A DNA stretch of 49,852 bases from an uncultured Ruminococcus sp. (GTDB lineage Bacteria > Bacillota > Clostridia > Oscillospirales > CAG-272). The DNA lies in contig CAYTLG010000001.1 in NCBI GenBank assembly GCA_964438725.1, forward strand, positions 1 through 49,852, written 5' to 3'. A program made the position numbers and the translations under genes. Positions 25,976-49,852 of this stretch are shown piece by piece. Below the pieces are notes generated by a model. The model saw only the letters and a program-made list of their open reading frames with translations, did no database searches and was not told the origin of the DNA. Every line of letters starts with the position of its first letter. Within the stretch, counting starts at the first letter, position 1.

Positions 25976-26028
25976 GACTTTGGGATTGGCTAAAGAGGTT
26001 TAGGGATTCGTTTAGCAAAACTCCATTG
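25976..26028 (+). repeat. intergenic repeat family, copy A (degenerate left-arm fragment, core missing)
   Basis: GACTTTGGGATTGGCTAAAGAGGTTTAGGGATTCGTTTAGCAAAACTCCATTGC aligns to the left arms of copies C, D and E but lacks TCAGCTTCAGGTGAA. Confidence 0.5.
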
Positions 26029-26060
26029 CTATAAAAGAACGAACAAATTGAAAGAATAAT

Positions 26061-26097
26061 AAAAAAGCAGAAGCTCTCCAAGAACCTCTGCTTTTTT
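26061..26097. terminator. intrinsic terminator downstream of the dehydratase-like gene (usable on both strands)
   Basis: GCAGAAG (26067-26073) pairs with CCTCTGC (26085-26091), with one mismatch. An A-run precedes it and a T-run follows. Confidence 0.6.
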
Positions 26098-26104
26098 GAT
26101 ATTT

Positions 26105-27352
26105 TCACGAAAACAGCTTCTCCCTCGCCGACGCAAGCATCAACTTCAACCTGTTCTCCTGGTTTACCGCAGATGCACCCGGGTCGTAGTCTATTGCTAC
26201 TATGTTCGCATCGGGATTTGCTTCCTTTATCGGCTTCATCATGCCCTTTCCACATATATGGTTCGGCAAACATCCAAACGGCTGAGTACATACAATGTTC
26301 GGTACTCCGGAATCTGCAAGCTCAAGCATCTCCGCAACAAGAAGCCATCCCTCTCCCATCTTCGTTCCGTAGCCTATGTAGTCCTTCGCAAGCTCAATGG
26401 TATGCTTGAACGGTGTAGCAGGTCTGAATGTTCCCTCTTTTTCAACCGCCTTTATCTGCTCTGCCTGTCTTGCACAGATGAAGTCAAGTCCTATCTTGTT
26501 TATCACGTGGGCAGCCTTGCCGTGACCGTAGAGCTTGTAGTCCATTACTCCGTTGTAGAAGCAGTAGTTGAAGAAGTCCGCAAGTCCGGGCATTACTACT
26601 TCCGCTCCCTCACGTACAAGGAACGACTCAAGCTGGTTGTTCCCGAGTGGTGAGAACTTGACGTAAATCTCGCCGACGATACCGACCTTGACCGCCTTAC
26701 GCTTTTCAACGGGGATAGCGGCAAAATCCTTGATTATGGCATCGTAGTTTTTTCTTACCTTTGAGTTTGAGATATGCTTATGTGTCAGCTCATCTACAAG
26801 GCGATCCGTCCACTTTTGACAGAGTGCATCTGCGTCGCCCTTGGTTTTCTCGTACGGGCGAACCTGATTTGCAAGAGACATCATGAGGTCACCGTAGAGA
26901 ACGCCGTACACCATTTTGTAGTAAAGTCCGAGTGAGTTTTTGAAGCCGGGATGGCTTTCGATTCCCGCAAGGCTGAGAGGCACTACGGGTACATACTCCA
27001 TACCGGCAGCTTTAAGTGCTTTTCTCATAAGTGAGACATAGTTTGAGGCACGGCAGCCACCGCCTGTTTGGAAGAGCATTACTGCTGTTTTATGTGGGTC
27101 ATACTTACCCGACATAAGTGCATCGAGGAGCTGACCTATAACCAGCACTGCGGGGTAACAGGTATCATTATGGACATATTTCAGTCCTGTTTCTGCAATC
27201 TGAGGTCCTGTTGTACGAAGAAGCTCCATTTTATATCCGTTAGTCTCGAATATTTGCTTCACAAGTGTAAAGTGGATAGGAAGCATATTCGGAATGAGGA
27301 TAGTATGGGTCTTTTTCATTTCCTCAGTGAATTTGACATAGTTTGTATTCAT
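26105..27352 (-). CDS. 2-hydroxyacyl-CoA dehydratase family protein (HgdA/B-like; DCCP-like)
   Basis: 415 aa. Cys motifs HNDTCYPAV, GGGCRASNY and CTQPFGCLPNH are characteristic of the family. It is paralogous to the C-terminal third of the upstream 998-aa protein. Confidence 0.8.
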   Translation of the reverse strand: MNTNYVKFTEEMKKTHTILIPNMLPIHFTLVKQIFETNGYKMELLRTTGPQIAETGLKYVHNDTCYPAVLVIGQLLDALMSGKYDPHKTAVMLFQTGGGCRASNYVSLMRKALKAAGMEYVPVVPLSLAGIESHPGFKNSLGLYYKMVYGVLYGDLMMSLANQVRPYEKTKGDADALCQKWTDRLVDELTHKHISNSKVRKNYDAIIKDFAAIPVEKRKAVKVGIVGEIYVKFSPLGNNQLESFLVREGAEVVMPGLADFFNYCFYNGVMDYKLYGHGKAAHVINKIGLDFICARQAEQIKAVEKEGTFRPATPFKHTIELAKDYIGYGTKMGEGWLLVAEMLELADSGVPNIVCTQPFGCLPNHICGKGMMKPIKEANPDANIVAIDYDPGASAVNQENRLKLMLASAREKLFS

Positions 27353-27398
27353 TTTGATTTTCTAAAATTATTTCTTTAATATACTTTATTTTTATAGT

Positions 27399-27454
27399 GA
27401 TTTGGGATTCCTAACACATTTTGGAAAACTAAAGTCCCCCTCAGCTTCAGGTGA
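27399..27454 (+). repeat. intergenic repeat family, copy B (right arm truncated at the stop codon of the upstream gene)
   Basis: GATTTGGGATTCCTAACACATTTTGGAAAACTAAAGTCCCCCTCAGCTTCAGGTGA. The core matches 14/15 at 27441-27455 and abuts the TAA (27455-27457) of the activase gene. Confidence 0.8.
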
Positions 27455-30451
27455 TTATATAACAGCTTTAAGACTGCGAAGTCTTATCTTCACCGCTCCA
27501 AGGTTCGCTATCTCGTCTATCTTTATCTGAGTATAGTATTTTCCACCGACTTCAAGTATTCGTCTTACTTCATCCGTCGTTATCGCATCTACTCCACAGC
27601 CGAATGATACAAGCTGTACTAATTGTACGTCGGGATTCTCTGTTGCAAACGCCGCCGCTCTGTATAATCTCGAATGATATGTCCACTGGTTCAGTACCTG
27701 TACCTCAGGTGTCCTTGCAAGATGTGCCACACTGTCCTCGGAAACTACAACAAAGCCAAGTGATAACGCCAGCTTGTCTATGCCGTGGCTTATCTCAGCA
27801 TCACAGTGATACGGTCTGCCCGCAAGTATCATGATAGGCTTCTCATGCTCCCTTGCGTACTTTATTGCCCTCTCACCCTCGGCTCTTACATCGCTTATGT
27901 ACTTCTCTATCGCCGCAAAACCTGCCGCAGCTGCCGCCTTTACTTCCGATTTCTTCATGTCGGGGTACATCGGCTTCAGCTCTTTCCAAAGTCCGTCGGC
28001 AAGCTCCTTTTCGTTGTTCAGCGACAGATACGGATAAAGGAACTTTCTGTTTTTGAGAATGTCCATGTTTCCGCGGAGAAGCTCGCTGTAATATGCCACT
28101 ACGGGGCAGTTGTAGTGGTTATCTCCGCTCGGCTGTCCGTCAAATTTCTCGTCAAGGTTCCATGTAAGTCTCGGATAGAATATCGTGTCACAACCCATGT
28201 CGCACAGTACCTCTATGTGACCGTGCATTATCTTCGCAGGATAGCAGGCTGTGTCGGACGGGATTGTGAACTGTCCTCTCTCGTATATAGCCTTTGTGGA
28301 CATTCCCGATGATACTACCTCAAAGCCAAGGCTCGTGAATACTGCGTTCCACAGAGGAAGAAGCTCGTACATTCCAAGCGTCAGAGGAAGTCCGATAACT
28401 CCTCGTCTGCTCTTCCCTTTTATCTCCTCATGCTCGCAGGTCGAAAGCATATATTCTCTCTTGTATTCGTAAAGGTTCGGTACGCCTTCCTCGTGTGTCA
28501 GCTTGCCCGCTCCCTTGTCGCATTTGTTTCCTGAGATGTATTTTCTTGTCTCGCCGTCCTTGCCGGGGAAGAAGTTCACCGTAAGCAGGCAATTGTTTGT
28601 ACATCCCTTGCAGTTTGCGGTTTTTGAGGTATGCGTGAACGCTTTAAGCTCTCCTGCGGTGATTATTCCCGAAAGATAGTCACGCTTGATTGCTCTTTCC
28701 TTTGCCCAAAGTGCCGCACCGTACGCTCCCATAAGTCCCGCAATGCTCGGTCTTGTTACATTCTCTCCAAGCTCACGCTCAAAGGCTCTCAGAACCGCAT
28801 CGTTAAGGAATGTTCCGCCCTGTACTACGATGTTCTTGCCAAGCTCGTCGGGAGAATGTGCTCTTATTACCTTGTATATGGCATTTTTTACCACACTAAC
28901 GGAAAGTCCGGCAGAAATATCCGCAACGGTAGCTCCGTCCTTCTGTGACTGCTTTACCTGTGAGTTCATGAATACAGTACAACGGCTTCCGAGGTTCACG
29001 GGATTTTCCGCAAACAGTGCCTTTTTCGAGAACTCCGCAGCTTCCATGTGCATTCCACGTGCAAACGTCTCGATGAACGAACCGCAGCCGGAGGAACAAG
29101 CCTCGTTGAGCATGATTCTGTCGATTGCACCGTTCTTTATCTTGAAGCACTTTATGTCCTGACCGCCGATATCGAGAATGAAGTCAACGTCGGGCTTGAA
29201 GAACTTCGCCGCTGTGTAGTGTGCTACTGTTTCAACAATACCGTCATCCACACCGAACGCAGCCTGAATAAGCTCTTCTCCGTAGCCTGTTACCGCAGAA
29301 CCGCATATTTTCACACGGTCTCCGCATTTTTCGTATATCTTATCAAGCTCTGCTCTGACTATCTCAACGGGATTACCACGGTTTGAGTCGTAGTAGGTGT
29401 AAAGTATCTCCGAATCCTCGCCGACTACCGTGAGCTTTGTTGTTGTGCTTCCGCAGTCGATACCAAGGTATGCACGTCCGCTGTATCCGTCAAGTGAGCC
29501 TATTTTTACAGAGGCCTTTGCGTGTCTGTCGGCGAACTCCTTATACTCCGCTTCGTTTTTGAAAAGAGCCGGAAGTCGGGTTGAGGTAGCGGCTATCTTT
29601 GCGTTTTCGATAAGCGAAATAAGCTCATCCATTGTGTATGTAACTCCGCCGCCCAGCTTTGACGCATACAATGCCGCACCGATGGACACCGCATTTCTTG
29701 CGTATTCGGGGAAAATTGCATTTTCGGGAGTGAGCTTTAAGGTTTCGACAAAGCGTTCTCTAAGTCCCTTGTTAAACGAAAGAGGACCGCCGAGGAACAT
29801 TACCTTGCCCTCGATTTTACGCCCCTGTGCAAGTCCTGCGATGGTCTGGTTTACTACTGCCTGATAAATGGAGGCTGCTACGTCCTCCTTTGCAGCTCCC
29901 TGATTAAGAAGCGGCTGAACGTCGGTCTTTGCGAAAACTCCGCAGCGTGAAGCTATGGGGTATATCTTCTTATGTTTCAGGGAAAGCTCGTCAAGCTCAT
30001 CGGGAGTAACGTCAAGAAGTGTTGCCATCTGGTCTATGAATGCTCCCGTACCGCCGGCACAGGTTCCGTTCATTCTCTCGTCTATGGCACCGTCGAAGAA
30101 TATTATTTTTGCGTCCTCTCCGCCAAGCTCTATTACAAGGTTTGTGTCGGGTGCGGCATTTTTTACGACTTCACCCGTTGCCCATACCTCCTGAACAAAA
30201 GGTATTTCGGCTCCCTCGGCAAGACCCATACCCGCAGAACCCGATACAGCCGCCGTGAATTTCTCGTTTCCGACTACTTCACGTGCGTTATCGAGCATTT
30301 TCACTACTGTTTCACGGATACATGAAAAATGTCTCTCGTAGGTATTGAAGATAACCTCTCCCGCCTTGAGAATAGCCAGCTTTGCGGTTGTAGAGCCAAC
30401 GTCTATTCCAAGCGTGAGTGTATCTGCTATATTTTTAAGATCAATGTGCAT
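27455..30451 (-). CDS. acyl-CoA dehydratase activase-type protein (two BadF/BadG/BcrA/BcrD ATPase domains + dehydratase-like C-terminal domain)
   Basis: 998 aa. Two acetate/sugar-kinase-fold ATPase starts, LGIDVGSTTAKLAIL and YLGIDCGSTTTKLTVV. Cluster-bridging Cys contexts ASRCGVF and GSRCTVF. The C-terminal region with SDTACYPAKI resembles the next gene. Confidence 0.85.
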   Translation of the reverse strand: MHIDLKNIADTLTLGIDVGSTTAKLAILKAGEVIFNTYERHFSCIRETVVKMLDNAREVVGNEKFTAAVSGSAGMGLAEGAEIPFVQEVWATGEVVKNAAPDTNLVIELGGEDAKIIFFDGAIDERMNGTCAGGTGAFIDQMATLLDVTPDELDELSLKHKKIYPIASRCGVFAKTDVQPLLNQGAAKEDVAASIYQAVVNQTIAGLAQGRKIEGKVMFLGGPLSFNKGLRERFVETLKLTPENAIFPEYARNAVSIGAALYASKLGGGVTYTMDELISLIENAKIAATSTRLPALFKNEAEYKEFADRHAKASVKIGSLDGYSGRAYLGIDCGSTTTKLTVVGEDSEILYTYYDSNRGNPVEIVRAELDKIYEKCGDRVKICGSAVTGYGEELIQAAFGVDDGIVETVAHYTAAKFFKPDVDFILDIGGQDIKCFKIKNGAIDRIMLNEACSSGCGSFIETFARGMHMEAAEFSKKALFAENPVNLGSRCTVFMNSQVKQSQKDGATVADISAGLSVSVVKNAIYKVIRAHSPDELGKNIVVQGGTFLNDAVLRAFERELGENVTRPSIAGLMGAYGAALWAKERAIKRDYLSGIITAGELKAFTHTSKTANCKGCTNNCLLTVNFFPGKDGETRKYISGNKCDKGAGKLTHEEGVPNLYEYKREYMLSTCEHEEIKGKSRRGVIGLPLTLGMYELLPLWNAVFTSLGFEVVSSGMSTKAIYERGQFTIPSDTACYPAKIMHGHIEVLCDMGCDTIFYPRLTWNLDEKFDGQPSGDNHYNCPVVAYYSELLRGNMDILKNRKFLYPYLSLNNEKELADGLWKELKPMYPDMKKSEVKAAAAAGFAAIEKYISDVRAEGERAIKYAREHEKPIMILAGRPYHCDAEISHGIDKLALSLGFVVVSEDSVAHLARTPEVQVLNQWTYHSRLYRAAAFATENPDVQLVQLVSFGCGVDAITTDEVRRILEVGGKYYTQIKIDEIANLGAVKIRLRSLKAVI

Positions 30452-30734
30452 TTATTCTACCATTCTGAATTGAAATAAGGCAGTATTCCGTACTTACAAG
30501 CGTGAATTTCAAGTCGTAGGTGCAGTACCGCCTATAATATATAATAATACAAAATCATGCAAAATACAAGGTTGATATTTGAACAAAAATGGAATGTTTT
30601 GTTTTTATTATTGTACAGTATACGAAAAATGCAGTTGTGTTCAGAAATCAACAACCATATAATTGGGTAAAATTACCATTCCGATTCGGTCTTGCGGTAC
30701 TCTGTCGGCATGGTCGTACTGACAGTTAAACAAA

Positions 30735-30764
30735 CAAAAAAGGAGCTATACAAAATACAGCCCC
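30735..30764 (-). terminator. possible intrinsic terminator after the 244-aa secreted protein gene
   Basis: On the minus strand: GGGGCT-gtattttgtat-AGCTCC (one G-U pair) followed by TTTTTTGTTTG. Confidence 0.5.
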
Positions 30765-30773
30765 TTTATTTAT

Positions 30774-31508
30774 TCAGTTAGCGAATCTGATTCCGAAGGT
30801 ATCGAAAAGCGGGATGGCTTCTTCTGTTTTTGCTTCTGCCACTATCTTTTCGGGTTCACTTCCGGCTTCTACCTCACCGTTTGTCTTATACTCAACATGG
30901 ACGTTTTCGCCCTCGTCACAGTAAAGTGCAAGCTCGGAGAGTGAGAATCCGTTACCTGTAAGTACGACGAACTCAAACTTATAATATCTGAACTTTCTTG
31001 CAAATTCCTTGACGGAGAACACCTTAAAGCCGTCCTTATCCTCTGCGGGATTTTCGACCTTGAGCTGGTACCAGTCCTCAAGCATGGTATCGTTTGTAGC
31101 GTACACGTTGATACCGATAACGTCACCCTTTTCTCCATCGATTTTTACGGCGAATGTATCGGCAACTACGGGAGCTTCAAATGCGGTATAGATGCTTAAT
31201 TTCTTAGACGGAACTTCTTCATCGAATGCTATCGAAAGTCCGGAATCCTCATCGAAGTCATAGAGGCAGGTGAGGTTCACGTTCGGGAGGAGGTCACAAA
31301 CGGAGCTTGTTACGGGAACGAGTTCCTTGCCGTCAACGGTAACTACTGCGAGCTTTTTGGTTACGGCTTCTGCACCGTCAGTTGTTTCCTCTGCGGCTTC
31401 AACTGTTTGGGGATTTGAGGAAATGAGCTGGTCATTTGCGTATGCATTTGTCGTAAGTGCGGAAAGAAGTGCAACTACGGCAAGTGAAAGTGCGAGTTTT
31501 TTCTTCAT
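30774..31508 (-). CDS. secreted hypothetical protein (possible galactose-binding-like beta-sandwich)
   Basis: 244 aa. Signal peptide MKKKLALSLAVVALLSALTTNAYA. The segment YYKFEFVVLTGNGFSLSELALY resembles discoidin/CBM32-type ends. The function call is weak. Confidence 0.65.
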   Translation of the reverse strand: MKKKLALSLAVVALLSALTTNAYANDQLISSNPQTVEAAEETTDGAEAVTKKLAVVTVDGKELVPVTSSVCDLLPNVNLTCLYDFDEDSGLSIAFDEEVPSKKLSIYTAFEAPVVADTFAVKIDGEKGDVIGINVYATNDTMLEDWYQLKVENPAEDKDGFKVFSVKEFARKFRYYKFEFVVLTGNGFSLSELALYCDEGENVHVEYKTNGEVEAGSEPEKIVAEAKTEEAIPLFDTFGIRFAN

Positions 31509-31530
31509 GGGATATGCCTTTCTTTATAAA

Positions 31531-33171
31531 TCAGTTTGCGTTTTCGATAAGAGCGTTTACCTTTTCACGGAGGGTTTCAACGTAGTCCTCATCGTGGGGG
31601 TATTCGGAGAATGTAATCTCACCTCTCTCGTCAACAAGAGCAAGGACTGCCTCACGGCCGCAAAGTTCTTCTGCGAGGTCCATAGCACGTCTGTCCTGGA
31701 GAGCCATTGTGAACGCTTTCATGTGGAGTGTTTCGAGAGGCTGACCGTTTTCGCCGGGATATACTGCGAAGCAATCTCCTGCGGGAACCCAATATTCACC
31801 ATCGTTGATGAGGTAGGGGTCTATTGCACGTGTGGAGCCCTGGTCGTTATAGAAGTTATAGCCCCACTGGAGGAAGCCTACGATATGATACTTCCAGAAC
31901 TGGGCACCGATAACACGGGTTCTCTGTGAGGGCATAGCAACCATACGGTTTGAAACCTTGTATGTCTGTCCGCAGCAGTAGTAAGTCCAGAGGTTGGGAA
32001 CATTTGCTTCAATGAACGGTGCGATATGGTCGTTTGAGGGGATGGGGCATGACAAAGCTCCTGTCTGGTAGAACTCGAAGCTGGAAAGAGCATCCATTAT
32101 TGTATAGTCGGAGATGAGGTCGTATATCTGCTCTTTTGCCTTTGTATATGCTTCAAGGTGCTGGAGTGAGGGTTCATCGGAGATATGGTAGAGGCATCTG
32201 TCATCAACACCGAGACGCTTCATTTCGGCAATGAACGCTGTCAGGAAGGTACGAAGGAAGGTTTTATATTCATCGGAGAAAGCATCGGTTTCCCAGCCGA
32301 AGATACGCTTATATTCGCCATCGTCATATGCCATGATTTTAGGTGCATGGGCACAACCCCATTGTGTATAGAGGTGGGATATTTCAAAGTATTCTACGCC
32401 TGCTTCACGTGCGATTTCAACCCATTTAGCGAGCTTATCGAAGCCGAAAGCGTATTCGCCCTGTTCACGGTAAACGTCGATAAGCTGAGTTGTACGTCTT
32501 TCACCGCCTACCTGAGTATCGAGCGGAGGAGTAAAAACAGGTGTAAGTATTGTATTGATACCGTTCTTTACAGCAGTTTTCATGAAGTTTGAAATATATT
32601 CCCAGTGCTTATCATCAAAGGATTCGAGTCCGTAGTAGTTTGCGATACAGTCACAATGGAACCATTCTGTAACCTTCATGGTCTGTTTGGGGAGAGTTTT
32701 TGCAATAACGTGTACTGTATACTCTGCGGAATAGGTTTCGCCGCCCACGAAAGATACTTTGATTGTGTGGTCACCTGCTGCTGTATTTTCGGGTACAGTT
32801 ACAGTAACAAAGAGTGCTTTAAGCTGACCGTATGTAGCGAAAACGGTATTTCCGTTAGTGAGGTCACGGAGGAGGTCAGGATAAAGTCCGGGAGTTTTAC
32901 GGAGGAAGTAGTCATCTGAACCGGGGTAAGCGGGGTATCTTACAGGTACGGGTTCAACGAGACGTACTTTTACGTCGGGGAGATCTGATTCAACCTGAAT
33001 CTGATACCAGCCTCTGGGGGACTCATTGGGGTCATCGGTAGCGAAAGCTATCTGGAAGCAGACTTCTTCACCGAGAAGTGCGGATGAGGATGAGGATACT
33101 TTTTTGGATTCGATATTCTCATCGAGGAAGCATTTCTCCATTGCGGAGACAGTACGTAGGTGGAGTGCCAT
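31531..33171 (-). CDS. DUF4091 / GH123-like glycoside hydrolase family protein
   Basis: The start is set at ATG 33171 (MALHLRTVSAMEKCF) after GAAAGGAAAC; the tracked 19-aa Lys-rich extension is repeat-derived leader. The conserved stretch WFHCDCIANYYG...INTILTPVFTPPLDTQVGGERRTTQLIDV is typical of DUF4091 proteins, from memory. Confidence 0.75.
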   Translation of the reverse strand: MALHLRTVSAMEKCFLDENIESKKVSSSSSALLGEEVCFQIAFATDDPNESPRGWYQIQVESDLPDVKVRLVEPVPVRYPAYPGSDDYFLRKTPGLYPDLLRDLTNGNTVFATYGQLKALFVTVTVPENTAAGDHTIKVSFVGGETYSAEYTVHVIAKTLPKQTMKVTEWFHCDCIANYYGLESFDDKHWEYISNFMKTAVKNGINTILTPVFTPPLDTQVGGERRTTQLIDVYREQGEYAFGFDKLAKWVEIAREAGVEYFEISHLYTQWGCAHAPKIMAYDDGEYKRIFGWETDAFSDEYKTFLRTFLTAFIAEMKRLGVDDRCLYHISDEPSLQHLEAYTKAKEQIYDLISDYTIMDALSSFEFYQTGALSCPIPSNDHIAPFIEANVPNLWTYYCCGQTYKVSNRMVAMPSQRTRVIGAQFWKYHIVGFLQWGYNFYNDQGSTRAIDPYLINDGEYWVPAGDCFAVYPGENGQPLETLHMKAFTMALQDRRAMDLAEELCGREAVLALVDERGEITFSEYPHDEDYVETLREKVNALIENAN

Positions 33172-33185
33172 AGGTGTGGGTTTCC

Positions 33186-33346
33186 TTTCTTTCAATTCTT
33201 TCTTTGTTTTATTTTCTTTCTTCACCAATGAAGTTTGGGTTAAAGGGGGTTAGGGCTTCATTTAGGTAAACTAATGTCCATTCAGCTTCAGGTGAATCCC
33301 AATCCACGGAGGTATCCGGTAGGGTGAACGCCACCCTCAACCTACC
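33186..33346 (+). repeat. intergenic repeat family, copy C (long form)
   Basis: About 160 bp with the exact core at 33282-33296. The left end forms the purine-rich 5' leader of the DUF4091 gene. The right end, TCAACCTACC (33337-33346), contains the ddl stop codon. Confidence 0.88.
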
Positions 33347-34386
33347 TCCGCTGCCTCTATCATTCTCGATAGAATCTCACGATAGCTTATGCCGTCGTTT
33401 ATCATCATCTTCGGATACATAGATATCGGCGTAAATCCGGGAAGCGTGTTTATCTCGTTGAATATAAATCCATCACTTACATGGAAAAAGTCTACTCTTG
33501 CGTATCCCTTGCAGCCAAGTGCCTTGAATACCTCTATTGCTTCTCTGCGTACCTCGTCCTGTTCCGCTTCACTTAACCTTGCAGGAAGATAGTACGTCGA
33601 GTCGTCACTTTTGTATTTCGCTTCGTAATCGTAAAATTCTGCGTTTCCGTGGTCTATCTCTGCCGGATGTGCCGCATAGTATTTGCCATGCTCCTCTAAT
33701 ACGGCAACCTCCGTTTCGCTGCCTACTATGCACTCCTCTACAAGTACCTTTCCGTCCTCGTGAAGTGCAGTTCTTATCGCTGCGTCAAATCCATCTGCCG
33801 ATTTTACTTTTGTCACACCAACAGATGAGCCTGCGTTTGCGGGTTTTACAAACATAGGATAACCAAGCTCCGCTTCACATCTGAGTCTGTATCCCTCGGC
33901 AGTGTCGGCATTGTAGTCGATTTCGTTTACAAAAACCGTTTTCGCCTGCTTTATGTCAGTTTCGGAGGCTACAACCGCCTTTGTGAACGCTTTGTCCATG
34001 CATACCGCAGATGACGTGCAGCCACAGCCGACAACGGGTATATTCATAAGTGCAAGCATTCCCTGGAGCTTTCCGTCCTCGCAGTTCTTTCCGTGCATCA
34101 TGGGCATTACAACGTCGGGTCTTATCTCACGCTCGCCTGCTACAAACACACCCTTTGCAAGGTCAAGAGACAGAGGAGTGGTCTTTCCCTCGCTCTCCCA
34201 TCTGTCATCACGCACAAGCTCGTTCTCTCCCTCGTAAAGGTAGAATCTGCCGTCTCTTGTTACGCCTGTCGTTATTACGTTGTAGCGTTCACGGTCTATA
34301 TTTTCCATCGCTCCGTATGCAGATGAAAGTGATACCTCGTATTCGGAAGATTTTCCGCCGAACATGAGCATTACGGTCTTTTTCAT
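33337..34386 (-). CDS. ddl: D-alanine--D-alanine ligase
   Basis: 349 aa. MLMFGGKSSEYEVSLSSA start and an ATP-grasp region ELGYPMFVKPANAGSSVGV ... EINTLPGFT. Confidence 0.93.
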   Translation of the reverse strand: MKKTVMLMFGGKSSEYEVSLSSAYGAMENIDRERYNVITTGVTRDGRFYLYEGENELVRDDRWESEGKTTPLSLDLAKGVFVAGEREIRPDVVMPMMHGKNCEDGKLQGMLALMNIPVVGCGCTSSAVCMDKAFTKAVVASETDIKQAKTVFVNEIDYNADTAEGYRLRCEAELGYPMFVKPANAGSSVGVTKVKSADGFDAAIRTALHEDGKVLVEECIVGSETEVAVLEEHGKYYAAHPAEIDHGNAEFYDYEAKYKSDDSTYYLPARLSEAEQDEVRREAIEVFKALGCKGYARVDFFHVSDGFIFNEINTLPGFTPISMYPKMMINDGISYREILSRMIEAAEVG

Positions 34387-34409
34387 TGGGTCATGCCTCT
34401 TTCTTATGA

Positions 34410-36029
34410 TTATTTCAGTATCTCAAAATAGCTTTTCAGGGTTTCTGCGGTCTTTCTCTCTCGCTGGCTTATCATATACTCAACAGAGTCTCTCAGTGCC
34501 TGCCAGCTCGCATTTATTACGTCACCGGACACACCTGTGGTTCTCCAAACTGCCGCTCCGTCCGTCGATTCTATGGCAACTCTTACCTGCGATGCCGTAG
34601 CCTTGGAGTCAAGCACACGTACACGGTAGTCCGTCAGACGCATTCTTCCGACTTCGGGATAGAACGGCATTAATGCTCGGCGTAGTGCTTCGTCAAGTGC
34701 GTTTACAGGACCGTTTCCCTCTCCTGCCGCAAGCTCCTGCTCTCCGCCAACCGATATTTTTATGACTGCGGAGGAATGGAGACTGTCCTCAGTGGAGCTG
34801 TCGTGCATTTCGTCGGTCATTACTTTAAGGCTTATCAGCTTGAAGCACTCGTTTCGTATACCGAAAACCTTGTCGCAAAGGAGTGAGAATGAAGCACCTG
34901 CGTCCTCGTAGTCGTAGCCCATGCTCTCACGCTCTTTAAGCTCGTTCATTAGGGTAACAAGTCGCTCGTCGTTCTTTTCAAGGGAGGCATATTCTTCGGG
35001 CAGGCTCAGTCTCAGCTTATCCATTATGGCGGCACGACCTGAAAGACTGCTTATTACTATATTTCTTTCGTTTCCCACAAGTTCGGGTGGAATATGTTCA
35101 AATGAGGCGGGATATTTTTTTACTCCGTCTATGTGTGAGCCTGCTTTATGGGTGAATGCGTAACCTCCGACAAATGGAGATCTTTCATCGAACGTGAGGT
35201 TAGCGGAGCTTACTATACTGCGTGCGGCTCTTGTAAGATTATGGATATTATCACCGATACAGTCCATACCGAGCTTGAGCTGGAGTACGGGAATGAGGGT
35301 ACAAAGGTCAGCGTTACCGCATCTTTCGCCGACTCCCATTACGGTACCATGAACCTGGCTTGCTCCCTCAATGACAGCGGAAACTGAGCAGGCGGCAGCC
35401 ATACCCATATCGTTATGACAATGCACTCCGATACGATGACCAAAGCGTTTTACGGCTGCATGTGCGACTACACCGACAACATCGGGGAGAGTTCCGCCGT
35501 TTGTATCGCAGAGGACTGCTGTTTTTGCACCTGCAACAAGGGCAGTATCGATGGTTTTGAGTGCATATTCGGGATTTTCGGAATATCCGTCAAAGAAATG
35601 CTCGGCATCGAAAATAACCTCTTTACCGGAGTCACGGAGGAATTTCACGCTCTCGTAAATCATACGCAGATTTTCTTCGGGTGTAACGCCGAGAACCTCC
35701 GTTACGTGTGCAAGAGAGGCTTTTCCGTATATGGTAGCTGCGGGAACTGGTGCTGCGGCGGAGAGTACAAGGTGTGAATCCATATCAGGTGAGAGACCTG
35801 CTTTGACTGTACGGCAGAAAACGCAGAGTTTAGCGTTATTCAGCTTGACACTGCCGAGTTTATCAAAGAATTCTTTATCCGCCTGAGAGGTTATCATACC
35901 GACTTCGATATAGGACACGCCGAGTTCATCGAGTCTATGTATAGTACGGAGTTTATCATCGGGTGAGAATTCGACTCCTGCACCCTGAGCTCCGTCACGG
36001 AGGGTAGTATCGAGGATGTCAATTTTCAT
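34410..36029 (-). CDS. cimA: citramalate synthase (2-isopropylmalate synthase family)
   Basis: 539 aa. The HMGL-like start is ILDTTLRDGAQGAGVEFS, with HCHNDMGMA, and a C-terminal LeuA-dimerisation-type regulatory domain. Confidence 0.85.
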   Translation of the reverse strand: MKIDILDTTLRDGAQGAGVEFSPDDKLRTIHRLDELGVSYIEVGMITSQADKEFFDKLGSVKLNNAKLCVFCRTVKAGLSPDMDSHLVLSAAAPVPAATIYGKASLAHVTEVLGVTPEENLRMIYESVKFLRDSGKEVIFDAEHFFDGYSENPEYALKTIDTALVAGAKTAVLCDTNGGTLPDVVGVVAHAAVKRFGHRIGVHCHNDMGMAAACSVSAVIEGASQVHGTVMGVGERCGNADLCTLIPVLQLKLGMDCIGDNIHNLTRAARSIVSSANLTFDERSPFVGGYAFTHKAGSHIDGVKKYPASFEHIPPELVGNERNIVISSLSGRAAIMDKLRLSLPEEYASLEKNDERLVTLMNELKERESMGYDYEDAGASFSLLCDKVFGIRNECFKLISLKVMTDEMHDSSTEDSLHSSAVIKISVGGEQELAAGEGNGPVNALDEALRRALMPFYPEVGRMRLTDYRVRVLDSKATASQVRVAIESTDGAAVWRTTGVSGDVINASWQALRDSVEYMISQRERKTAETLKSYFEILK

Positions 36030-36040
36030 CTTGGCTTATT

Positions 36041-36170
36041 TTCTTTCAATTCTTTCTTTTTTCTTTCTTCACCAATAAAGTTTGGTTCAAAGAGGGTTAG
36101 GGTTCGTTTAGGTAAAACCAAAGTCCATTCAGCTTCAGGTGAAATCTAAATCAATAGCCCCACGTCAGTG
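36041..36170 (+). repeat. intergenic repeat family, copy D (long form)
   Basis: About 130 bp with the exact core at 36129-36143. The first 120 nt are about 85% identical to copy C by eye. The left end forms the cimA 5' leader. The right end, CACGTCAGTG (36161-36170), contains the prmC stop codon and recurs in copy H. Confidence 0.88.
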
Positions 36171-37010
36171 CAAATTCTTCAGCACCGCTCCCCTTTTTCT
36201 TTTTCCGTAGTCCATTATTACGTCCACTGACATTCCGTTCGACTTCGCTATCTCGCTTACAGCCTCGTACTGGTCGTAGCCATGCTCGAATATTATCGAA
36301 CCATTGTCAGTCAGTGCATTTTTATACATTTCTATTATCGAACGGTAGAAGCTCAAACCGTCTCCTCCGTCCGTTAAGGCTATCCTCGGCTCGTAGCTCA
36401 ACTCAGGCTCAAGCCCTGCCATTACTTCTTCGGGAATGTACGGCGGATTCGCTGTTATGAGGTCAAACTTCTTGCCCTCGAACAGCTGCGTCATTGCATC
36501 CCCCCTCAGCACCCTTGCCCTCTCCGTGACCCCGTTTAAAACAAGGTTTTCTCGTGCGGTTTTCAGTGCCGAGTCCGATATATCTACAAGCGTAAACTCC
36601 GCCTGCTTTACCTGATACATAACGGCTATTGCTATGCATCCCGAACCCGTGCAAAGGTCAAGACAGCGGTATTTTTCTTTTTTTCCCTGCTTTTTCAGCT
36701 CAATTACGGCTCTTTCCGCAACAAGCTCCGTGTCGGGTCTGGGAATAAGGCACCCCTCTCCGACTCGCATGGGCATTCCGTAGAACTCCCACTCTCCCAG
36801 TATATACTGCATCGGGTAGCGTGTGAGTCTTTTCTCAAGTGCTTCTTTGAATCTCACGAATCCGTCCATTTTATCAAGCTCGTCATAACGCATGATAAGT
36901 GAACGTGACATCGGAACGGAAAGGAACTTTTCGCACAGCAGGCGTACTTCGTTTTCAGCTTCCTCTATCCCGCATTCGGTGAGCATTTTTACAGCGTCGT
37001 TGATATTCAT
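36165..37010 (-). CDS. prmC: peptide chain release factor N5-glutamine methyltransferase
   Basis: 281 aa. SAM-binding LDLCTGSGCIAI and the catalytic NPPY motif (ITANPPYIPEE). Confidence 0.92.
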   Translation of the reverse strand: MNINDAVKMLTECGIEEAENEVRLLCEKFLSVPMSRSLIMRYDELDKMDGFVRFKEALEKRLTRYPMQYILGEWEFYGMPMRVGEGCLIPRPDTELVAERAVIELKKQGKKEKYRCLDLCTGSGCIAIAVMYQVKQAEFTLVDISDSALKTARENLVLNGVTERARVLRGDAMTQLFEGKKFDLITANPPYIPEEVMAGLEPELSYEPRIALTDGGDGLSFYRSIIEMYKNALTDNGSIIFEHGYDQYEAVSEIAKSNGMSVDVIMDYGKRKRGAVLKNLH

Positions 37011-37019
37011 ATTGTATAT

Positions 37020-38027
37020 TTATTCGTTTTCCTGTGAATCTTTATTCCCCTCAGTGCTTGCACCGTAGTGAACATCCTCACGATACTGCTCAGGGATAGC
37101 GTGGTTGAGAGCCTCAAGAGCTACCTCAAGCTGAGTCAGGTCGGGTTCACGGGTGGTTATTCTCTGCATCCAAAGACCGGGGGCGGAAACTATTTTCACG
37201 AAAACATTGTCGTGTGCTCCTGCATAACGGATAAACTCAAAGCCAAGTCCTACGATGAGGGGAAGGGTGAGTATTTTAAGACCGAAGCGAATCCACACGT
37301 TATCCCAGCTCAGGAATGAGTTTACAACAATGGAGATAATGAGCATAACGAAGATAAAGCTGGTACCGCATCTGGGATGGAATCTGGTACACTTAGCGGC
37401 GTTTTCGGGAGTAAGGGGAAGTCCCTTTTCAAAGCAGGCAACGGACTTATGCTCCGCACCGTGGTACTCGTATGTACGACGCATATCGGGCATAAGTGAA
37501 GTCAGTGCGATATAGCCTACGAAAATTGCCATACGGATAAGTCCCTCGACCAATGCACGGAGGATATTGAACTTACCGATGAATCCGCCTGTAAGGAAGT
37601 CAAGACCTTTTGCGACAAATGTGGGGAGCATGAGGAACATACCTACACCGAGAGCAAGTCCGAGAACCATACCGATAGCGGTAACGAAGCTCATGAGTTT
37701 ATCACCGAACTTATCACAAAGCCATTTTTCAAATTTTGTTTCGGGTTCTTCCGTATCTATGCCCTGCATTTCTGCGGATTTTGTGAGCATATCCATAGAA
37801 AGTTTAAGCTGTTCTACGAAAGAGACGATACCTCTTATAATGGGGAGGTTAAAGAATTTATGCTTTTTACGGAGTGAAGTGAATTTGGAATTATCGAGGG
37901 CGATATTTCCATCTGGTGTTCTGACAGCGAGTGAACAATCGTCACCCGACTTCATCATTACGCCCTCAAGCACGGCCTGACCGCCGACGATACCTATACG
38001 AGGGTCTATGTTTTTTTTGTTTTTCAT
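37020..38027 (-). CDS. DUF1385 (YqhQ-like) membrane protein
   Basis: 335 aa with GGQAVLEGVMM near the N-terminus, YHGAEHK and several TMs. It is commonly found upstream of prmC in Firmicutes. Confidence 0.85.
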   Translation of the reverse strand: MKNKKNIDPRIGIVGGQAVLEGVMMKSGDDCSLAVRTPDGNIALDNSKFTSLRKKHKFFNLPIIRGIVSFVEQLKLSMDMLTKSAEMQGIDTEEPETKFEKWLCDKFGDKLMSFVTAIGMVLGLALGVGMFLMLPTFVAKGLDFLTGGFIGKFNILRALVEGLIRMAIFVGYIALTSLMPDMRRTYEYHGAEHKSVACFEKGLPLTPENAAKCTRFHPRCGTSFIFVMLIISIVVNSFLSWDNVWIRFGLKILTLPLIVGLGFEFIRYAGAHDNVFVKIVSAPGLWMQRITTREPDLTQLEVALEALNHAIPEQYREDVHYGASTEGNKDSQENE

Positions 38028-38062: not shown

Positions 38063-38091
38063 ATTATAGCACTAATGGGAGTAGATGTCAA
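38063..38091 (-). promoter_or_regulatory. sigma-A type promoter of DUF1385-prmC
   Basis: On the minus strand: TTGACA (38091-38086), 17-nt spacer, TATAAT (38068-38063). Confidence 0.7.
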
Positions 38092-38157
38092 ACAAAACGT
38101 GGGGTTATGGTGGACTATGTAGGTGAGATTTTCTCCCTATGGATTACCCAATCGACT

Positions 38158-38268: not shown

Positions 38269-38300
38269 ATTGCATCCCCACATTTTCTGTGCTATAATAT

Positions 38301-39389
38301 CTACGATTGCTTCTTTATTGCTTCAAATAGCCCACGTATGAATTCGTATATTACATCTCGCTCTTCTTTGCCGAGATTGCCGAATGTCCTTGAGGCCGCA
38401 AGTAGCTTCGGTAGCTGCTCACGCTCAAGCTCGCTTACAGTCTTTGCTCCCGTCGAGGACAGCACACCGAAAAATATCTCCGTAAACTCTCGACGCTTCT
38501 CTCCATCCAGCCTTCCAAGCCATTCTCGAAAGACCTCGTCGTGACGCTTTCCTCTCGCTGACATTGCAGATAAATGCACAAACTCTCGCCCCATTACCTT
38601 CCACGTGAACGGATTGTGCTGGAGTAAACCGTTTTTCGTGCTGCTCTCTATTACCTCAAGCTCCCGTCCACGGCATAACAGCATTCCCACAACGGACGAC
38701 TGCGGTACTATCGTGATTATCTTGTCCTCCATTGACGAAAATTCTTCGCTTTTTACTATTTCTTCCAAAAATCCGGGGCCGTCGTTGCTGTATGCCTTTA
38801 TGATACGCTCACGAACCTCGGCAGACGCAAATACCGCCGAATATACCGCAAGATTTCCGCCCTTTGAGTGACCGCCCGTGCGTATTCCACCCCGATATAC
38901 AGCAGATATATCACGCAGATACTCCGCCGCCATAGCCTGTGCAGGTACGGGATGAGTAAAGCTGAGGTTGAAGTCCTCGTGCCAGCCTACAAGAGTGTCG
39001 TCAGTTCCCCTGAACGCTACGTAAAGCGTGTTGTCGGGCAGAATGAACGTCACTGCCGAAAACTGTACGCACTCGTCCTCATCGGTTCTGCACCTGTACG
39101 CAGCCACATATACCTCACTGAATCTCGCAGAACGGGCAGCGGCTACAAAAAGGTCGTTCACAAGCGGTGGTACTATGTGACCGAAATTTTCACCCATCGG
39201 GTATTTTATCCTGTTCTCGTCAAAGCATTTGTCAAGTCTCACGGGCATACCGTACTCCGACTCCGACACCGCCGAAGAATAGTCAACAAACGAGAGCATG
39301 GACAGTATTATATTATCGACCTCGCAGAACGGAGAGGCAGAAAAGGTAACGTCTCCCCTCCATCTGATGTAATCAAGAATCGTGGACAT
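38301..39389 (-). CDS. Mbeg1-like / DUF2974 lipase-fold protein
   Basis: 362 aa. The N-terminal ILDYIRWRGDVTFSASPFCEVDNIILSMLSFVDY is the family hallmark. The nucleophile elbow is GHSKGG. Confidence 0.8.
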   Translation of the reverse strand: MSTILDYIRWRGDVTFSASPFCEVDNIILSMLSFVDYSSAVSESEYGMPVRLDKCFDENRIKYPMGENFGHIVPPLVNDLFVAAARSARFSEVYVAAYRCRTDEDECVQFSAVTFILPDNTLYVAFRGTDDTLVGWHEDFNLSFTHPVPAQAMAAEYLRDISAVYRGGIRTGGHSKGGNLAVYSAVFASAEVRERIIKAYSNDGPGFLEEIVKSEEFSSMEDKIITIVPQSSVVGMLLCRGRELEVIESSTKNGLLQHNPFTWKVMGREFVHLSAMSARGKRHDEVFREWLGRLDGEKRREFTEIFFGVLSSTGAKTVSELEREQLPKLLAASRTFGNLGKEERDVIYEFIRGLFEAIKKQS

Positions 39390-41158: not shown

Positions 41159-41220
41159 TTTTAGGGATTATCCAAAGTTCTTTCAGCTTCAGGTGAAATC
41201 TCATAGGGCGAACCTCACCA
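41156..41220 (+). repeat. intergenic repeat family, copy F (short form, between plus-strand genes)
   Basis: TGATTTTAGGGATTATCCAAAGTTCTTTCAGCTTCAGGTGAAATCTCATAGGGCGAACCTCACCA. The exact core is at 41183-41197. It has the same absolute orientation as all other copies although both flanking genes are on the plus strand. Confidence 0.85.
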
Positions 41221-41250
41221 CAGGGTTAAACCGTAGGTTAAAAATTCCCC

Positions 41251-43772: not shown

Positions 43773-43852
43773 ATGGGTTCCTTTCGTCATGTGTGGGTCT
43801 TTTTGATAAAAGATATGTTAGAAAAAGGAGCGATAGAACTGCGGTAGTGGTA

Positions 43853-43942
43853 TTCCAAAAGGATTTAGTCAAACCAAAGTCCCCTCAGCTTCAGGTGAAT
43901 CCCAAGCCACGGGGTATCAAATAGGGCGACCGTCAACCTACC
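43853..43942 (+). repeat. intergenic repeat family, copy G
   Basis: ...CCAAAAGGATTTAGTCAAACCAAAGTCCCCTCAGCTTCAGGTGAATCCCAAGCCACGGGGTATCAAATAGGGCGACCGTCAACCTACC. The exact core is at 43885-43899. The right end, TCAACCTACC (43933-43942), contains the spoIIE stop codon. Confidence 0.88.
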
Positions 43943-46344: not shown

Positions 46345-46540
46345 AAAGCACCTCGAATTAAATAGAATTAGTATGGGGACATTATAATTCATGGGGGATG
46401 AAAATTCCGATGGAAAATAGGCATGGGGAAATGGCACCTTAGGCGACAAGGTGTGCATTTTGCGATGGAAATGGGGATAGGCAGAATTTCCGTGATGAAA
46501 CCGAGCAAATCCTCATGGGAAAAGGGATAGGAAATAGTGT

Positions 46541-46610
46541 GGAACTAAAGACAAACCAAAGTCACGTCAGCTTCAGGTGAATCCCAAACACACCAAACCT
46601 CACGTCAGTG
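46541..46610 (+). repeat. intergenic repeat family, copy H (between divergent genes)
   Basis: GGAACTAAAGACAAACCAAAGTCACGTCAGCTTCAGGTGAATCCCAAACACACCAAACCTCACGTCAGTG. The exact core is at 46567-46581. Confidence 0.85.
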
Positions 46611-46659
46611 GAATTATTATGAAATTAAAAAAGAACTACGGTCTTTTTACTCTTTTTCC

Positions 46660-46746: not shown

Positions 46747-46762
46747 TGTTTCACGTGAAACA
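46747..46762. other. parS: parS centromere-like site (perfect 16-bp palindrome)
   Basis: TGTTTCACGTGAAACA matches the Firmicute parS consensus TGTTNCACGTGAAACA at 16/16. It lies in the 5' UTR of the oxidoreductase gene, 2.1 kb from a ParB-family gene. Confidence 0.85.
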
Positions 46763-47876: not shown

Positions 47877-48728
47877 ATGCAGCACACAGTCAGAACGAAC
47901 ATTTATGACGTGAACGTGGTTTTCCAGAAAAAGGAACTTACGCTCGGCGGATACACATTAAAATACCGTCTTTACATCCCGAAAAATTATGACTGCGGTG
48001 AGAAATATCCGCTTCTCGTATTCCTTCACGGTGCGGGTGAAAGAGGAAACGACAACGAACTTCAGATGAAGAACTGTCTCCAGGTTATGTTCAACGACAT
48101 CACCTCTCCCGTGTACGATAGCGTTATAATCGTTCCGCAGTGTCCCGAAAACGCTCAGTGGGTCAATACTCCGTGGGCTGACGGCTCATATTCGACTCGA
48201 AACGTCAGAGAGTCACCTCCTCTTGAAATGGTATGCCATATCATTGACGAGGTTCGTGATTTCTGCAACATCGATGACGACAGAGTTTACGTCTCCGGTA
48301 TCTCGATGGGTGGATTCGGAACATGGGATATGCTTGCACGACATGGTTCAAGATTTGCGGCAGGAATACCCATTTGCGGTGGCGGTGATCCCTCTTATGC
48401 AAGAATGCTGAAGAGAATCCCGATACGCACATTCCACGGTTCAAGCGATGATGCGGTTCCCGTAAATGGCACGAGAGAGATGTATGCTGCAATCAAGCGT
48501 GAGGGCGGCGAAGAGATAAGCTACACAGAATTTGAGGGCTGCGGTCACAACATCTGGGACATGGTTTTCTCCGACCCGAACAACATTCGCTGGCTTTACG
48601 AGCAGTCAAGACGTGAAAGACGACTTGCTGCGGAGAGACGTGCGAAGCTGAAAAAGGCAGCTGCGGCAGGTGGCGTGAGTGCCGCTGTTGCAACCGCGGT
48701 TATACTTCTCACAAGAAAGAAAAAGTAA
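47877..48728 (+). CDS. alpha/beta hydrolase (esterase / prolyl-oligopeptidase-like) with C-terminal TM tail
   Basis: 283 aa. PLLVFLHGAGERGNDN, nucleophile elbow GISMGGFGTW, HGSSDDAVP and GCGHNIW. The C-terminal GGVSAAVATAVILLTRKKK is a tail anchor. Confidence 0.8.
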   Translation: MQHTVRTNIYDVNVVFQKKELTLGGYTLKYRLYIPKNYDCGEKYPLLVFLHGAGERGNDNELQMKNCLQVMFNDITSPVYDSVIIVPQCPENAQWVNTPWADGSYSTRNVRESPPLEMVCHIIDEVRDFCNIDDDRVYVSGISMGGFGTWDMLARHGSRFAAGIPICGGGDPSYARMLKRIPIRTFHGSSDDAVPVNGTREMYAAIKREGGEEISYTEFEGCGHNIWDMVFSDPNNIRWLYEQSRRERRLAAERRAKLKKAAAAGGVSAAVATAVILLTRKKK

Positions 48729-48744
48729 ATTTTACCAATAGAAA

Positions 48745-48789
48745 AGAGCTGTACTCTGATTATTCATCAGGTGTACGGCTCTTTTTTTG
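48745..48789 (+). terminator. intrinsic terminator
   Basis: AGAGCTGTAC (48745-48754) pairs with GTACGGCTCT (48773-48782), including one G-U pair, followed by TTTTTTT. Confidence 0.8.
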
Positions 48790-48894
48790 TGCAAAATCCG
48801 GCTTATAAGGCGATTTTTAAGGCATTTGTATAATTATTCGGTCTGTGTATTTTTATTCATTCGCACTGAACAGGTGTTTGTATAAATATTCTTA

Positions 48895-49731
48895 TTATGC
48901 AATGTCCCTATTTTTGGTAAGCAATATCTCAATCAGCACGCCTCGCTCCACCTCCTTGCGTGATGACTCAACGGGTATGCCCGAGCGTTTGATTATCTCA
49001 ACAGCCTGGTCGATGGAGTTATAAAAAAGGCGGAGGTCACGGACAACGAGCTTACGTTTCTGCTCTTTTTTCTCCTCTTTTTCGGTCGCTCTTGACGCTG
49101 CACAAAGCAATTCTTCGATATATTCTTCGGTTTTTCCAACGTTCATTTCACGCTTGATTATTTTCTCAAGAGCGTCGTCACGGTCCTTTTCGTTAGGCAA
49201 CCTGAGCAAAGCACGTGCGTGTCGTTCGGTAAGTGAATTTTCGATGATGAGGTTTTTCTGCGAATCAGAGAGCTTCAAAAGACGTAGTTTATTTGCGACG
49301 TAGGACTGGCTGACCGACAATTTTTTGGCACAACTTTCCTGCGTCATGCCCGTAATAGAGATAAGTGAATGTATTGCGTTTGCTTCTTCAAACATGGTGA
49401 GATCCTGACGGTGGAGGTTTTCTATGATAGCGATAACTGCGGCATCAATTTCGCCGACTTCGACAGCGACAACGGGGACGGTTTCAAGTCCCGCAAGCTG
49501 AGCAGCCCTGAGCCGTCTTTCGCCTGCAACGAGGGTATAAGGTAGGTCTGCACCGGTGGGTCGTCTGACGAGGATAGGTTCAAGCACGCCATGCTCAGCG
49601 ATACTTTCGGCGAGCTGTGCCACTGACGAATCCTGCCTGACGTGCCTGACACGATTTTCGGGAACGATGATATTTTTCGGCGGAATCTCGTGGACGATTT
49701 TACTGATTTCCTTAATTTTTCCCCAAAACAT
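48895..49731 (-). CDS. noc: ParB-family protein, Noc-like paralogue
   Basis: 278 aa. ParB box GERRLRAA. The HTH region SQSYVANKLRLLKL and LTERHARALL matches B. subtilis Noc (QSTIANKLRLLKL, ITERHARALI) rather than Spo0J (RPHIANHLRLLTL, LSMGHGRTLL). The N-terminus MFWGKIKEISKI is potentially amphipathic. The Noc-like C-terminus is RDLRLFYNSIDQAVEIIKRSGI. Confidence 0.8.
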   Translation of the reverse strand: MFWGKIKEISKIVHEIPPKNIIVPENRVRHVRQDSSVAQLAESIAEHGVLEPILVRRPTGADLPYTLVAGERRLRAAQLAGLETVPVVAVEVGEIDAAVIAIIENLHRQDLTMFEEANAIHSLISITGMTQESCAKKLSVSQSYVANKLRLLKLSDSQKNLIIENSLTERHARALLRLPNEKDRDDALEKIIKREMNVGKTEEYIEELLCAASRATEKEEKKEQKRKLVVRDLRLFYNSIDQAVEIIKRSGIPVESSRKEVERGVLIEILLTKNRDIA

Positions 49732-49783
49732 AGAAATTTTGAACCTCCGTTATTTATAAGATTTTCAATTTTTTGTTTATAGC

Positions 49784-49852
49784 GATTTGGTTTTGCATAA
49801 GTCCATTCAACTTCAGGTGAATCCCAAGCCCAACGGATTATCCATATTATAC
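49784..49852 (+). repeat. intergenic repeat family, copy I (runs into window edge)
   Basis: GATTTGGTTTTGCATAAGTCCATTCAACTTCAGGTGAATCCCAAGCCCAACGGATTATCC... The core matches 14/15 at 49807-49821 (G to A). Confidence 0.8.

Follow-up and report, generated by a model that had tools for sequence, protein, structure and literature searches.

Small intergenic repeats of bacteria are usually regarded as junk or as typing markers. Among the described families, the enterobacterial ERIC (IRU) and the Neisseria Correia elements are non-coding, intergenic sequences of 100 to 200 bp built as a long imperfect palindrome with an asymmetric center that sets their orientation; they are often found immediately behind stop codons or within operons, many copies are truncated, and their presence varies among close strains. 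A second kind, comprising the BOX elements of pneumococcus and Streptococcus suis (boxA-boxB(n)-boxC), the Escherichia coli BIMEs, and the Neisseria NIMEs, is assembled from interchangeable modules, is very variable in size and in its composition among strains, and can supply stop codons (PMC3049150). The window studied here, the whole stretch of 49,852 nucleotides that makes up one entire contig (CAYTLG010000001.1) in the metagenome-assembled genome (MAG) of an uncultured, spore-forming Clostridia bacterium of gut type, carries a repeat family whose organization is closest to these palindromic elements and mosaics (PMC3049150, PMC3184786). The family is real: nine non-coding copies (A to I) of 55 to 203 bp each lie within 24 kb, and all but A contain the 15-nt core TCAGCTTCAGGTGAA or a one-mismatch version of it. 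The family is previously undescribed, and its kind, a MITE-like modular repeat (MITE, miniature inverted-repeat transposable element), is already known. We consider it rather probable that it represents a lineage-restricted family of small, non-coding, non-autonomous intergenic repeats of the MITE, ERIC, or BOX/BIME type with a constrained internal site.

The likeness to ERIC and Correia covers all the features just listed and also the possession of a conserved internal site, reported in those families as an IHF site or as promoter or RNase sites and represented here by the core. Unlike them, the family shows no sequence similarity to either, a TA or other target duplication could not be shown, both inverted repeats are found in only one copy, all copies share a single orientation in a 24-kb cluster instead of being dispersed genome-wide, and conservation is highest in a non-palindromic 15-mer next to one arm rather than at the termini. 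As in BOX, BIMEs, and NIMEs, there are modules (two alternative left extensions, an optional terminator-hairpin module, and variable right arms), and the size per site ranges from 55 to >400 bp across lineages. The module sequences are nevertheless unrelated to those of these families, the window has no tandem boxB-like array and no REP palindromes in alternating orientation, and an orientation lock or regional restriction is foreign to BOX, BIMEs, and NIMEs. Membership of BOX itself was rejected for the lack of tandem internal modules and of similarity to Rfam or curated families, the resemblance being organizational only.

Distribution of the repeat

The core occurs six times exactly and twice with one mismatch, always on the plus strand (Table 1), where 0.08 matches would be expected by chance, and eight matches were reached in 0 of 100 shuffles. 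Repeat finding recovered the same family, with 60 to 86% identity over 50 nt around the identical core, and the core-less fragment A scored 21 to 23 in alignments with the left arms of C, D, and E (null maximum, 13 to 18). Among the gaps longer than 50 bp, taken from the list of open reading frames (ORFs) and the gap sequences, a copy was found in 9 of 12 between 25.3 kb and the right edge and in none of five in the first 25 kb. All this agrees with the original prediction, which had been drawn from the nucleotide letters of the window and had given the same core positions, a left-arm fragment at A, no copy in the first 25 kb, and one in nearly every sizable gap from 25.9 kb onward. Its statement that every copy is intergenic holds approximately, as B and D overlap stop codons and C and G abut them. 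The absence of a consistent reading frame stood: the short ORFs that start after the core differ from copy to copy, a 2- to 3-nt indel before the core shifts the frame, and a small ORF was rejected as an explanation because these frames are not alike between copies. An nhmmer profile made from eight copies found no extra copy within the window or in the 10 kb past its right edge, which were recovered from an independent assembly.

Roughly 80 kb of this organism were sampled, with nine copies in 24 kb and none in the other ~56 kb, which comprise the first 25 kb of the window, the 10 kb to its right, and a second region encoding an M23 peptidase and AddAB (L040 to L043) that was assigned to the organism by inference from sample co-occurrence, cluster composition, and tetranucleotide similarity. 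This second region contained no copy and no accessory module in ~20.6 kb of the window lineage and ~26 kb of the sister lineage. The family is thus a regional cluster and not a genome-wide saturation.

Searches farther afield recovered no relative. The pattern TCAGCTTCAGGTGAAWYCYMA gave isolated chance matches inside unrelated coding regions of GTDB representative genomes and JGI metagenomes, viral contigs gave 0 matches, plasmids and phages gave no match, and a literature search for the 15-mer on either strand returned 0 papers. When the whole window was scanned against Rfam at the gathering threshold, the valS T-box alone passed; no family reached that threshold on the repeat, and any Rfam RNA family was rejected for it on this ground. 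Permissive scans of E, C, and the sister locus L036 yielded chance-level matches only, a 13-bit "drum" match was rejected since it did not recur in other copies, and a tRNA- or tmRNA-like origin was looked for and not found. The earlier impression that the repeat belongs to no named family is therefore borne out in Rfam, plasmids, phages, viral contigs, and the literature.

An invariant core within drifting arms

To the copies of the window we added those of two sister lineages (L034 and L036), which have 98 to 99% protein identity and 10 to 13% third-codon divergence from it. Across the resulting 12 distinct copies, core positions 0 to 14 are invariant but for two singleton changes in 180 positions. 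Flanking positions are 33 to 92% conserved, except for isolated invariant A's at -8 and +20, and the least conserved positions are the 2 to 3 nt directly 5' of the core. Each comparison of orthologous cores (E in three lineages, F and C in two) showed 0 changes in 15 positions; at the third-codon rate ~5.7 substitutions would be expected over these comparisons, and none was seen (Poisson P ~0.003). At site E, the arms differ between lineages by 19 to 25% together with many and large indels, and the unique intergenic flanks by 1 to 5%. As the arms diverge at the synonymous rate or faster and the core stays the same, purifying selection on the core is supported. The original prediction had already argued for such selection and had proposed comparing core and flanks in a larger set of copies; in the 12 copies, as in every orthologous pair, the core is conserved far beyond its flanks.

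A modular palindromic element

Copy E is a full-length imperfect palindrome, and what had been described as the right arm of the repeat is its right inverted repeat. The left side of E aligned to the reverse complement of the right arm with a score of 17 (null maximum, 12), a DNA fold of E pairs both arms, and an inverted-repeat profile matched the left repeat of E on the plus strand and the right repeats of E, C, and G on the minus strand (Table 1). Inverted repeats are also present in the E orthologues of L034 and L036 and in the F orthologue of L036. The order of the element is a left inverted repeat (IR-L), an asymmetric center made of left arm and core, and a right inverted repeat (IR-R), with the core directly inside IR-R. 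The inverted repeats are ~40 nt long (consensus GGTGAG.TT..C.CCCTAT.GG.TACC....G.CTTGGG), and a complete element measures about 150 to 200 bp. Within the window, C and G retain IR-R, A retains a remnant of IR-L, and truncation has gone further in B, D, F, H, and I. In the long forms of the sister lineages, a bidirectional terminator hairpin is inserted and a GGGACT...AGTCCC hairpin immediately precedes the core; together with the alternative left extensions, these hairpins show that the family is modular. That no hairpin is consistently conserved, as had been stated, is right for the truncated copies and wrong for E with its long inverted repeats.

Neither a promoter nor a terminator role was retained for the window copies. 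Strong sigma-A promoters lie beside the elements and never inside them, as the description of the element as distinct from these promoters implied, and no terminator-like site was found in the window copies, the hairpin being confined to the long forms of the sister lineages.

Table 1. Copies of the repeat in the window and the neighboring parS site
Feature	Position	Strand	Composition	Context
Copy A	25951-26028 (about)	+	IR-L remnant and left arm; no core, no right arm	
Copy B	27392-27455	+	Left arm and core variant TCAGCTTCAGGTGAT (start 27441); no right arm	Stop codon of the 998-aa activase gene begins with the final core base
Copy C	33179-33336	+	Pyrimidine-rich left extension, left arm, core 33282-33296, IR-R 33298-33336	Abuts ddl stop codon
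Copy D	36033-36173	+	Left extension, left arm, core 36129-36143, deleted right arm ending CACGTCAGTG	Right end CACGTCAGTG provides prmC stop codon
Copy E (full-length)	38089-38291	+	Outer inverted repeat pair 38089-38104 / 38276-38291; IR-L 38122-38161; asymmetric center of left arm and core (core 38212-38226); IR-R 38227-38267	
Copy F	41159-41226	+	Truncated left arm, core 41183-41197, outer half only of IR-R	Flanked by two plus-strand genes; L036 orthologue is a long form with internal terminator hairpin
Copy G	43838-43937	+	Divergent left arm, core 43885-43899, IR-R 43901-43937	IR-R extends into the last codons of spoIIE
Copy H	46523-46611	+	Divergent left arm, core 46567-46581, shortened right arm ending CACGTCAGTG	Divergent promoter gap, together with parS
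Copy I	49755-49850	+	Core variant TCAACTTCAGGTGAA at 49807-49821	Contig end falls inside right arm
parS (not part of the repeat)	46747-46762		Perfect site TGTTTCACGTGAAACA	

The pyrimidine-rich left extension is common to C and D and differs from the left side of E. At their outer right ends several copies share the 10-mer CACGTCAGTG (36164-36173, 46602-46611, the C site of L034, and the D site of L036), which resembles the core module (CAAACC..TC.ACGTCAG..TG) after a deletion. Another 10 nt, GGTAGGTTGA, directly adjoin IR-R and encode the ...VG* in which the unrelated minus-strand genes ddl and spoIIE both end (33337-33346 and 43933-43942). SpoIIE of the window is 4 to 5 residues shorter than its counterparts at the related loci L027 and L028; the stop codon may come from the element, which would then truncate the gene, or the 10 nt may be a preferred target. 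At or just outside the outer edge of E, an extended -10-like sequence, TGTGCTATAAT (38276-38299, plus strand), points antisense into a Mbeg1-like gene and is 100% conserved across the three lineages. A perfect bidirectional intrinsic terminator (AAAAAAGCAGAAGCTCT / AGAACCTCTGCTTTTTT) lies at 26055-26103, between a DUF2229 gene and fragment A.

Comparison with related genomes

Syntenic relatives (L027, L028, L031, and L032) encode a DUF1385 protein 80 to 87% identical to that of the window. A profile search found no copy at the syntenic gaps of five related loci, and the spacers there are far shorter: 1 to 16 bp against 135 bp in the window between prmC and leuA, and 33 to 42 bp (L027 and L032) against 108 bp between ddl and GH123. 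Given that relatives with the same gene order have no copy and such short spacers, the elements are insertions in this clade.

The sister lineages carry repeats at the same junctions as the window, rebuilt by indels and module swaps. The core at site D is present only in the window lineage, and L034 and L036 have instead terminator-hairpin, long-hairpin, and separate ~250-nt repeat modules at this site. The last of these form a second repeat family (motifs GGCTAACCGC, CGCAAACGGCTC, and TGCCTAATGGGATGT), absent from the window, which fills the D and C junctions of L034 (L034:3675-4114 and L034:6808-7317) with 81% identity between both sites and has a partial relative in a more distant genome (L029:3601-3750). 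Several contigs end inside copies of the repeat, namely the window at its right end (49852), L036 at both ends, and L019 at one end; such breaks are expected of a repeat and suggest that the population contains further or variant copies beyond those retrieved.

One repeat per gene junction, the same orientation throughout, confinement to one region, and a short conserved core within variable arms are also properties of integron attC arrays and CALINs, such as the Vibrio VCRs. An integron or gene-cassette array was rejected, as the intervening ddl, leuA-like, prmC, holA, and spoIIE genes are syntenic in relatives without the repeat, and genes whose order is conserved there are not cassettes. 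Unlike attC sites, moreover, most copies have no imperfect symmetry of the R''-L''...L'-R' kind, and no integrase accompanies them.

The left boundary of conserved synteny falls inside the repeat-rich region, to the left of GH123 (30774-33228, compared with L027, L028, and L032). The relatives continue with the M23 peptidase and AddAB, which in the window clade are located elsewhere (L040 to L043); here a lineage-specific protein of 244 aa (30774-31508) follows instead, which gave no informative family match.

Orientation of the copies and their surroundings

All nine copies share one orientation (two-sided binomial, about 0.004), as had been predicted, including F between plus-strand genes and H between divergent genes. 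Six of the eight core copies lie between codirectional minus-strand genes, and F and H alone separate orientation from transcription. Third-position GC skew tracks the coding strand gene by gene and is therefore uninformative on the replichore. An oriented word of the Chi or KOPS/SRS type, which would be frequent and strand-skewed all along the replichore and also within genes, was rejected, since the 5- to 8-mers of the core are neither over-represented nor skewed in orientation outside the copies. The genes around the copies have housekeeping and sporulation functions (ddl, a leuA-like synthase, prmC, DUF1385, holA, an RNase M5-like gene, a ROK kinase, sipL, spoIIE, and a Noc-like ParB gene). 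Both the parS site and the Noc-like ParB gene reported earlier were confirmed; the 24-kb region holds this perfect parS and ends at the Noc-like ParB gene, which is next to rsmG, and from these three markers a position near oriC is plausible. Neither a transposase nor an integrase is encoded in the window, in line with the earlier note of no transposase nearby.

Orientation bias relative to replication is documented for insertion sequences, especially in Firmicutes (PMC3971601), and for the lagging-strand-targeting IS200/IS605 elements (PMC5027513), so that a uniform orientation is compatible with a mobile origin. The strand-specific, replication-coupled insertion of IS200/IS605-derived PATEs and of REP/RAYT REPINs, which insert without duplicating their target and require an HUH enzyme acting in trans, would explain the uniform orientation and perhaps local reinsertion (PMC5027513, PMC3971601). 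Unlike in those elements, conserved subterminal hairpins at both ends were not found in most copies, there is no GTAG/CGTC-tagged REP palindrome and no conserved target of 4 to 5 nt beside one end, and neither a tnpA nor a RAYT gene was detected in the DNA available. Membership of REP, BIME, or REPIN, which are GC-rich palindromes of 20 to 40 nt with a conserved GTAG or CGTC tag, was rejected because the core is non-palindromic, a tagged REP hairpin is lacking, and the orientation is single as opposed to the usual alternating one.

A mobile repeat with a constrained site

The element combines a constrained site with the behavior of a mobile or recombining repeat, the latter being evident from its MITE-like inverted repeats, its absence at syntenic sites, and its gain, loss, truncation, and recombination between close lineages. 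The original prediction had set selection on the core against a purely decaying MITE, an opposition that was not sustained given the inverted-repeat architecture of E, the absence from relatives, and the remodeling between lineages. As in MITEs, the copies are small (<300 bp), non-coding, and multiple, E has terminal inverted repeats, and presence/absence polymorphism was observed, yet with zero lineage-specific new sites.

According to the reading that we favor, the family would have entered short spacers between housekeeping genes in an ancestor of the clade, after which deletion, the insertion of modules, and exchange among the copies would have eroded and rearranged it. The core would, as a best guess, be a sequence-specific protein-recognition site on DNA, read either by a trans-acting enzyme that mobilizes or recombines the element or by a host factor that co-opts the site. 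As it is non-palindromic, it would be read directionally, which would fit the uniform orientation of the nine copies. A site at the DNA level is favored because its sequence rather than a structure is conserved and because the orientation stays uniform where transcription is reversed. Mobility by a transposase, action on DNA rather than RNA, and the cause of the orientation lock are the parts of this reading that we infer.

Several observations weigh against it. No autonomous element or transposase was present in the ~130 kb sampled from the clade, and scans of sequence collections found nothing related. Nine copies in 24 kb and none in ~56 kb elsewhere is a clustering unusual for MITEs, both inverted repeats are kept in only one of the nine window copies (E), and the core lies outside the inverted repeats, unlike the classical binding position of a transposase. 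A direct repeat was not evident at the outer ends of E, and a target-site duplication could not be defined, the only empty sites being those of relatives that are too divergent for an alignment spanning the gap. Among the three lineages we saw remodeling at shared sites and no insertion site that differs between them. Ectopic gene conversion, finally, could mimic part of the core conservation.

What is unusual about the family is its invariant asymmetric core, its clustering beside parS, and its uniform orientation. Within one family and one 24-kb stretch, arms that change faster than synonymous sites around an unchanged 15-nt site amount to a clean natural experiment and point to a specific reader. 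If this is a transposase or recombinase, the family would provide a handle on the local, one-orientation spread of repeats in Firmicutes-type chromosomes; if it is a host factor, a mobile element would be distributing a cis-site next to a partition locus. At a practical level, the repeat breaks assemblies of the clade and alters gene ends and spacing in operons such as prmC-leuA and ddl-GH123.

Alternative readings of the core

A function of the core in RNA seems rather unlikely. Most copies would be cotranscribed with the upstream minus-strand gene, as a 3' untranslated region or intercistronic segment, and the core, present in that RNA as UUCACCUGAAGCUGA, would act as a site for an RNA-binding protein or RNase; in a variant of this idea, the core would serve as an anti-Shine-Dalgarno-like UCACCU mimic and influence the stability of mRNA or the translation of neighboring genes, as reported for REP, ERIC, and Correia elements. 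The position of the six copies between codirectional minus-strand genes, directly after stop codons, fits such a role, as does the bidirectional terminator hairpin next to the core of the long forms, and effects of ERIC, Correia, and BIME on transcripts are documented (PMC3049150). On the minus strand, G-U pairs join the core and IR-R (GGCUU/AAGCU and GGG/CCU) where the plus strand has A-C mismatches, which weakly supports a transcript-level site. The folds speak against it. A consensus RNA structure was rejected for either strand as weak (-3.4 kcal/mol) and without covariation or compensatory change, the short copies gave no convincing fold on either strand, with single-sequence folds no better than those of shuffles (z -1.1 to +0.95, E excepted), and three copies have T for G in an arm, which breaks the central pair. 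The sense transcript at F carries the opposite strand, yet the core there is intact in two lineages, H sits in a divergent promoter gap, and the repeat has no Rfam match.

It is also unlikely that the core has no function and owes its identity to recent spread, with ectopic gene conversion or recombination homogenizing the most similar stretch while indels accumulate in the arms. The arms are indeed mosaic, exchanged or replaced between copies and lineages, conservation declines gradually on both sides of the core with no sharp step, and just 12 distinct copies are available. Conversion should, however, homogenize the adjacent arms, and in orthologous copies these differ by 19 to 25%, ~2x the third-codon divergence, to the very edge of a core that shows 0/15 changes. 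The high variability of the 2 to 3 nt immediately 5' of the core is contrary to simple tract homogenization, and core identity persists across 10 to 13% third-position divergence.

Quite unlikely is a host array for chromosome organization, in which oriented sites for a segregation, condensation, or replication factor would have been spread locally by the repeat and kept by selection. Such an array would accord with the constrained core, with an orientation that disregards flanking transcription at F and H, and with confinement to the ~24 kb that hold parS and end at the Noc-like ParB gene next to rsmG. The absence of copies from ~56 kb of the same organism and ~26 kb of the sister lineage points the same way, although the genome assignment of L040 to L043 is by co-occurrence, cluster pattern, and tetranucleotides, not by a closed assembly. 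The core is non-palindromic, unlike parS, NBS, ram, and matS sites, its sub-words are not enriched or strand-skewed outside the elements, the array is strongly one-sided around parS, the site D core is lost in two lineages, and relatives with the same gene order and functions have no sites at all. Highly unlikely, at last, is an exapted vehicle, that is, a mobile palindromic element which seeded over ~24 kb beside parS and the noc-like parB gene a one-directional array for a candidate sequence-specific protein, kept for origin-region organization, segregation, or fork/transcription polarity as a counterpart of parS, ram, or Ter-type site clusters that is non-palindromic and depends on orientation.

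Other features of the window

Two neighboring blocks of minus-strand genes differ in the sign of their bulk GC skew, which is +0.08 to +0.14 at 12744-25322 and about -0.05 at 26105-39389. The left half has an atypical tetranucleotide profile, and its block, with genes for an ABC transporter and large extracellular proteins, may be of different origin; the repeat cluster begins exactly at the edge of this block. A T-box leader (113 bits) at 7753-7976 on the minus strand is located upstream of the valyl-tRNA synthetase gene (5073-7691). Lastly, tandem repeats of 15 nt (ATCTGTTTCAGTTTC) at 15093-15183, inside a minus-strand ORF of 1081 aa, probably encode the repetitive acidic linker of a large secreted protein.

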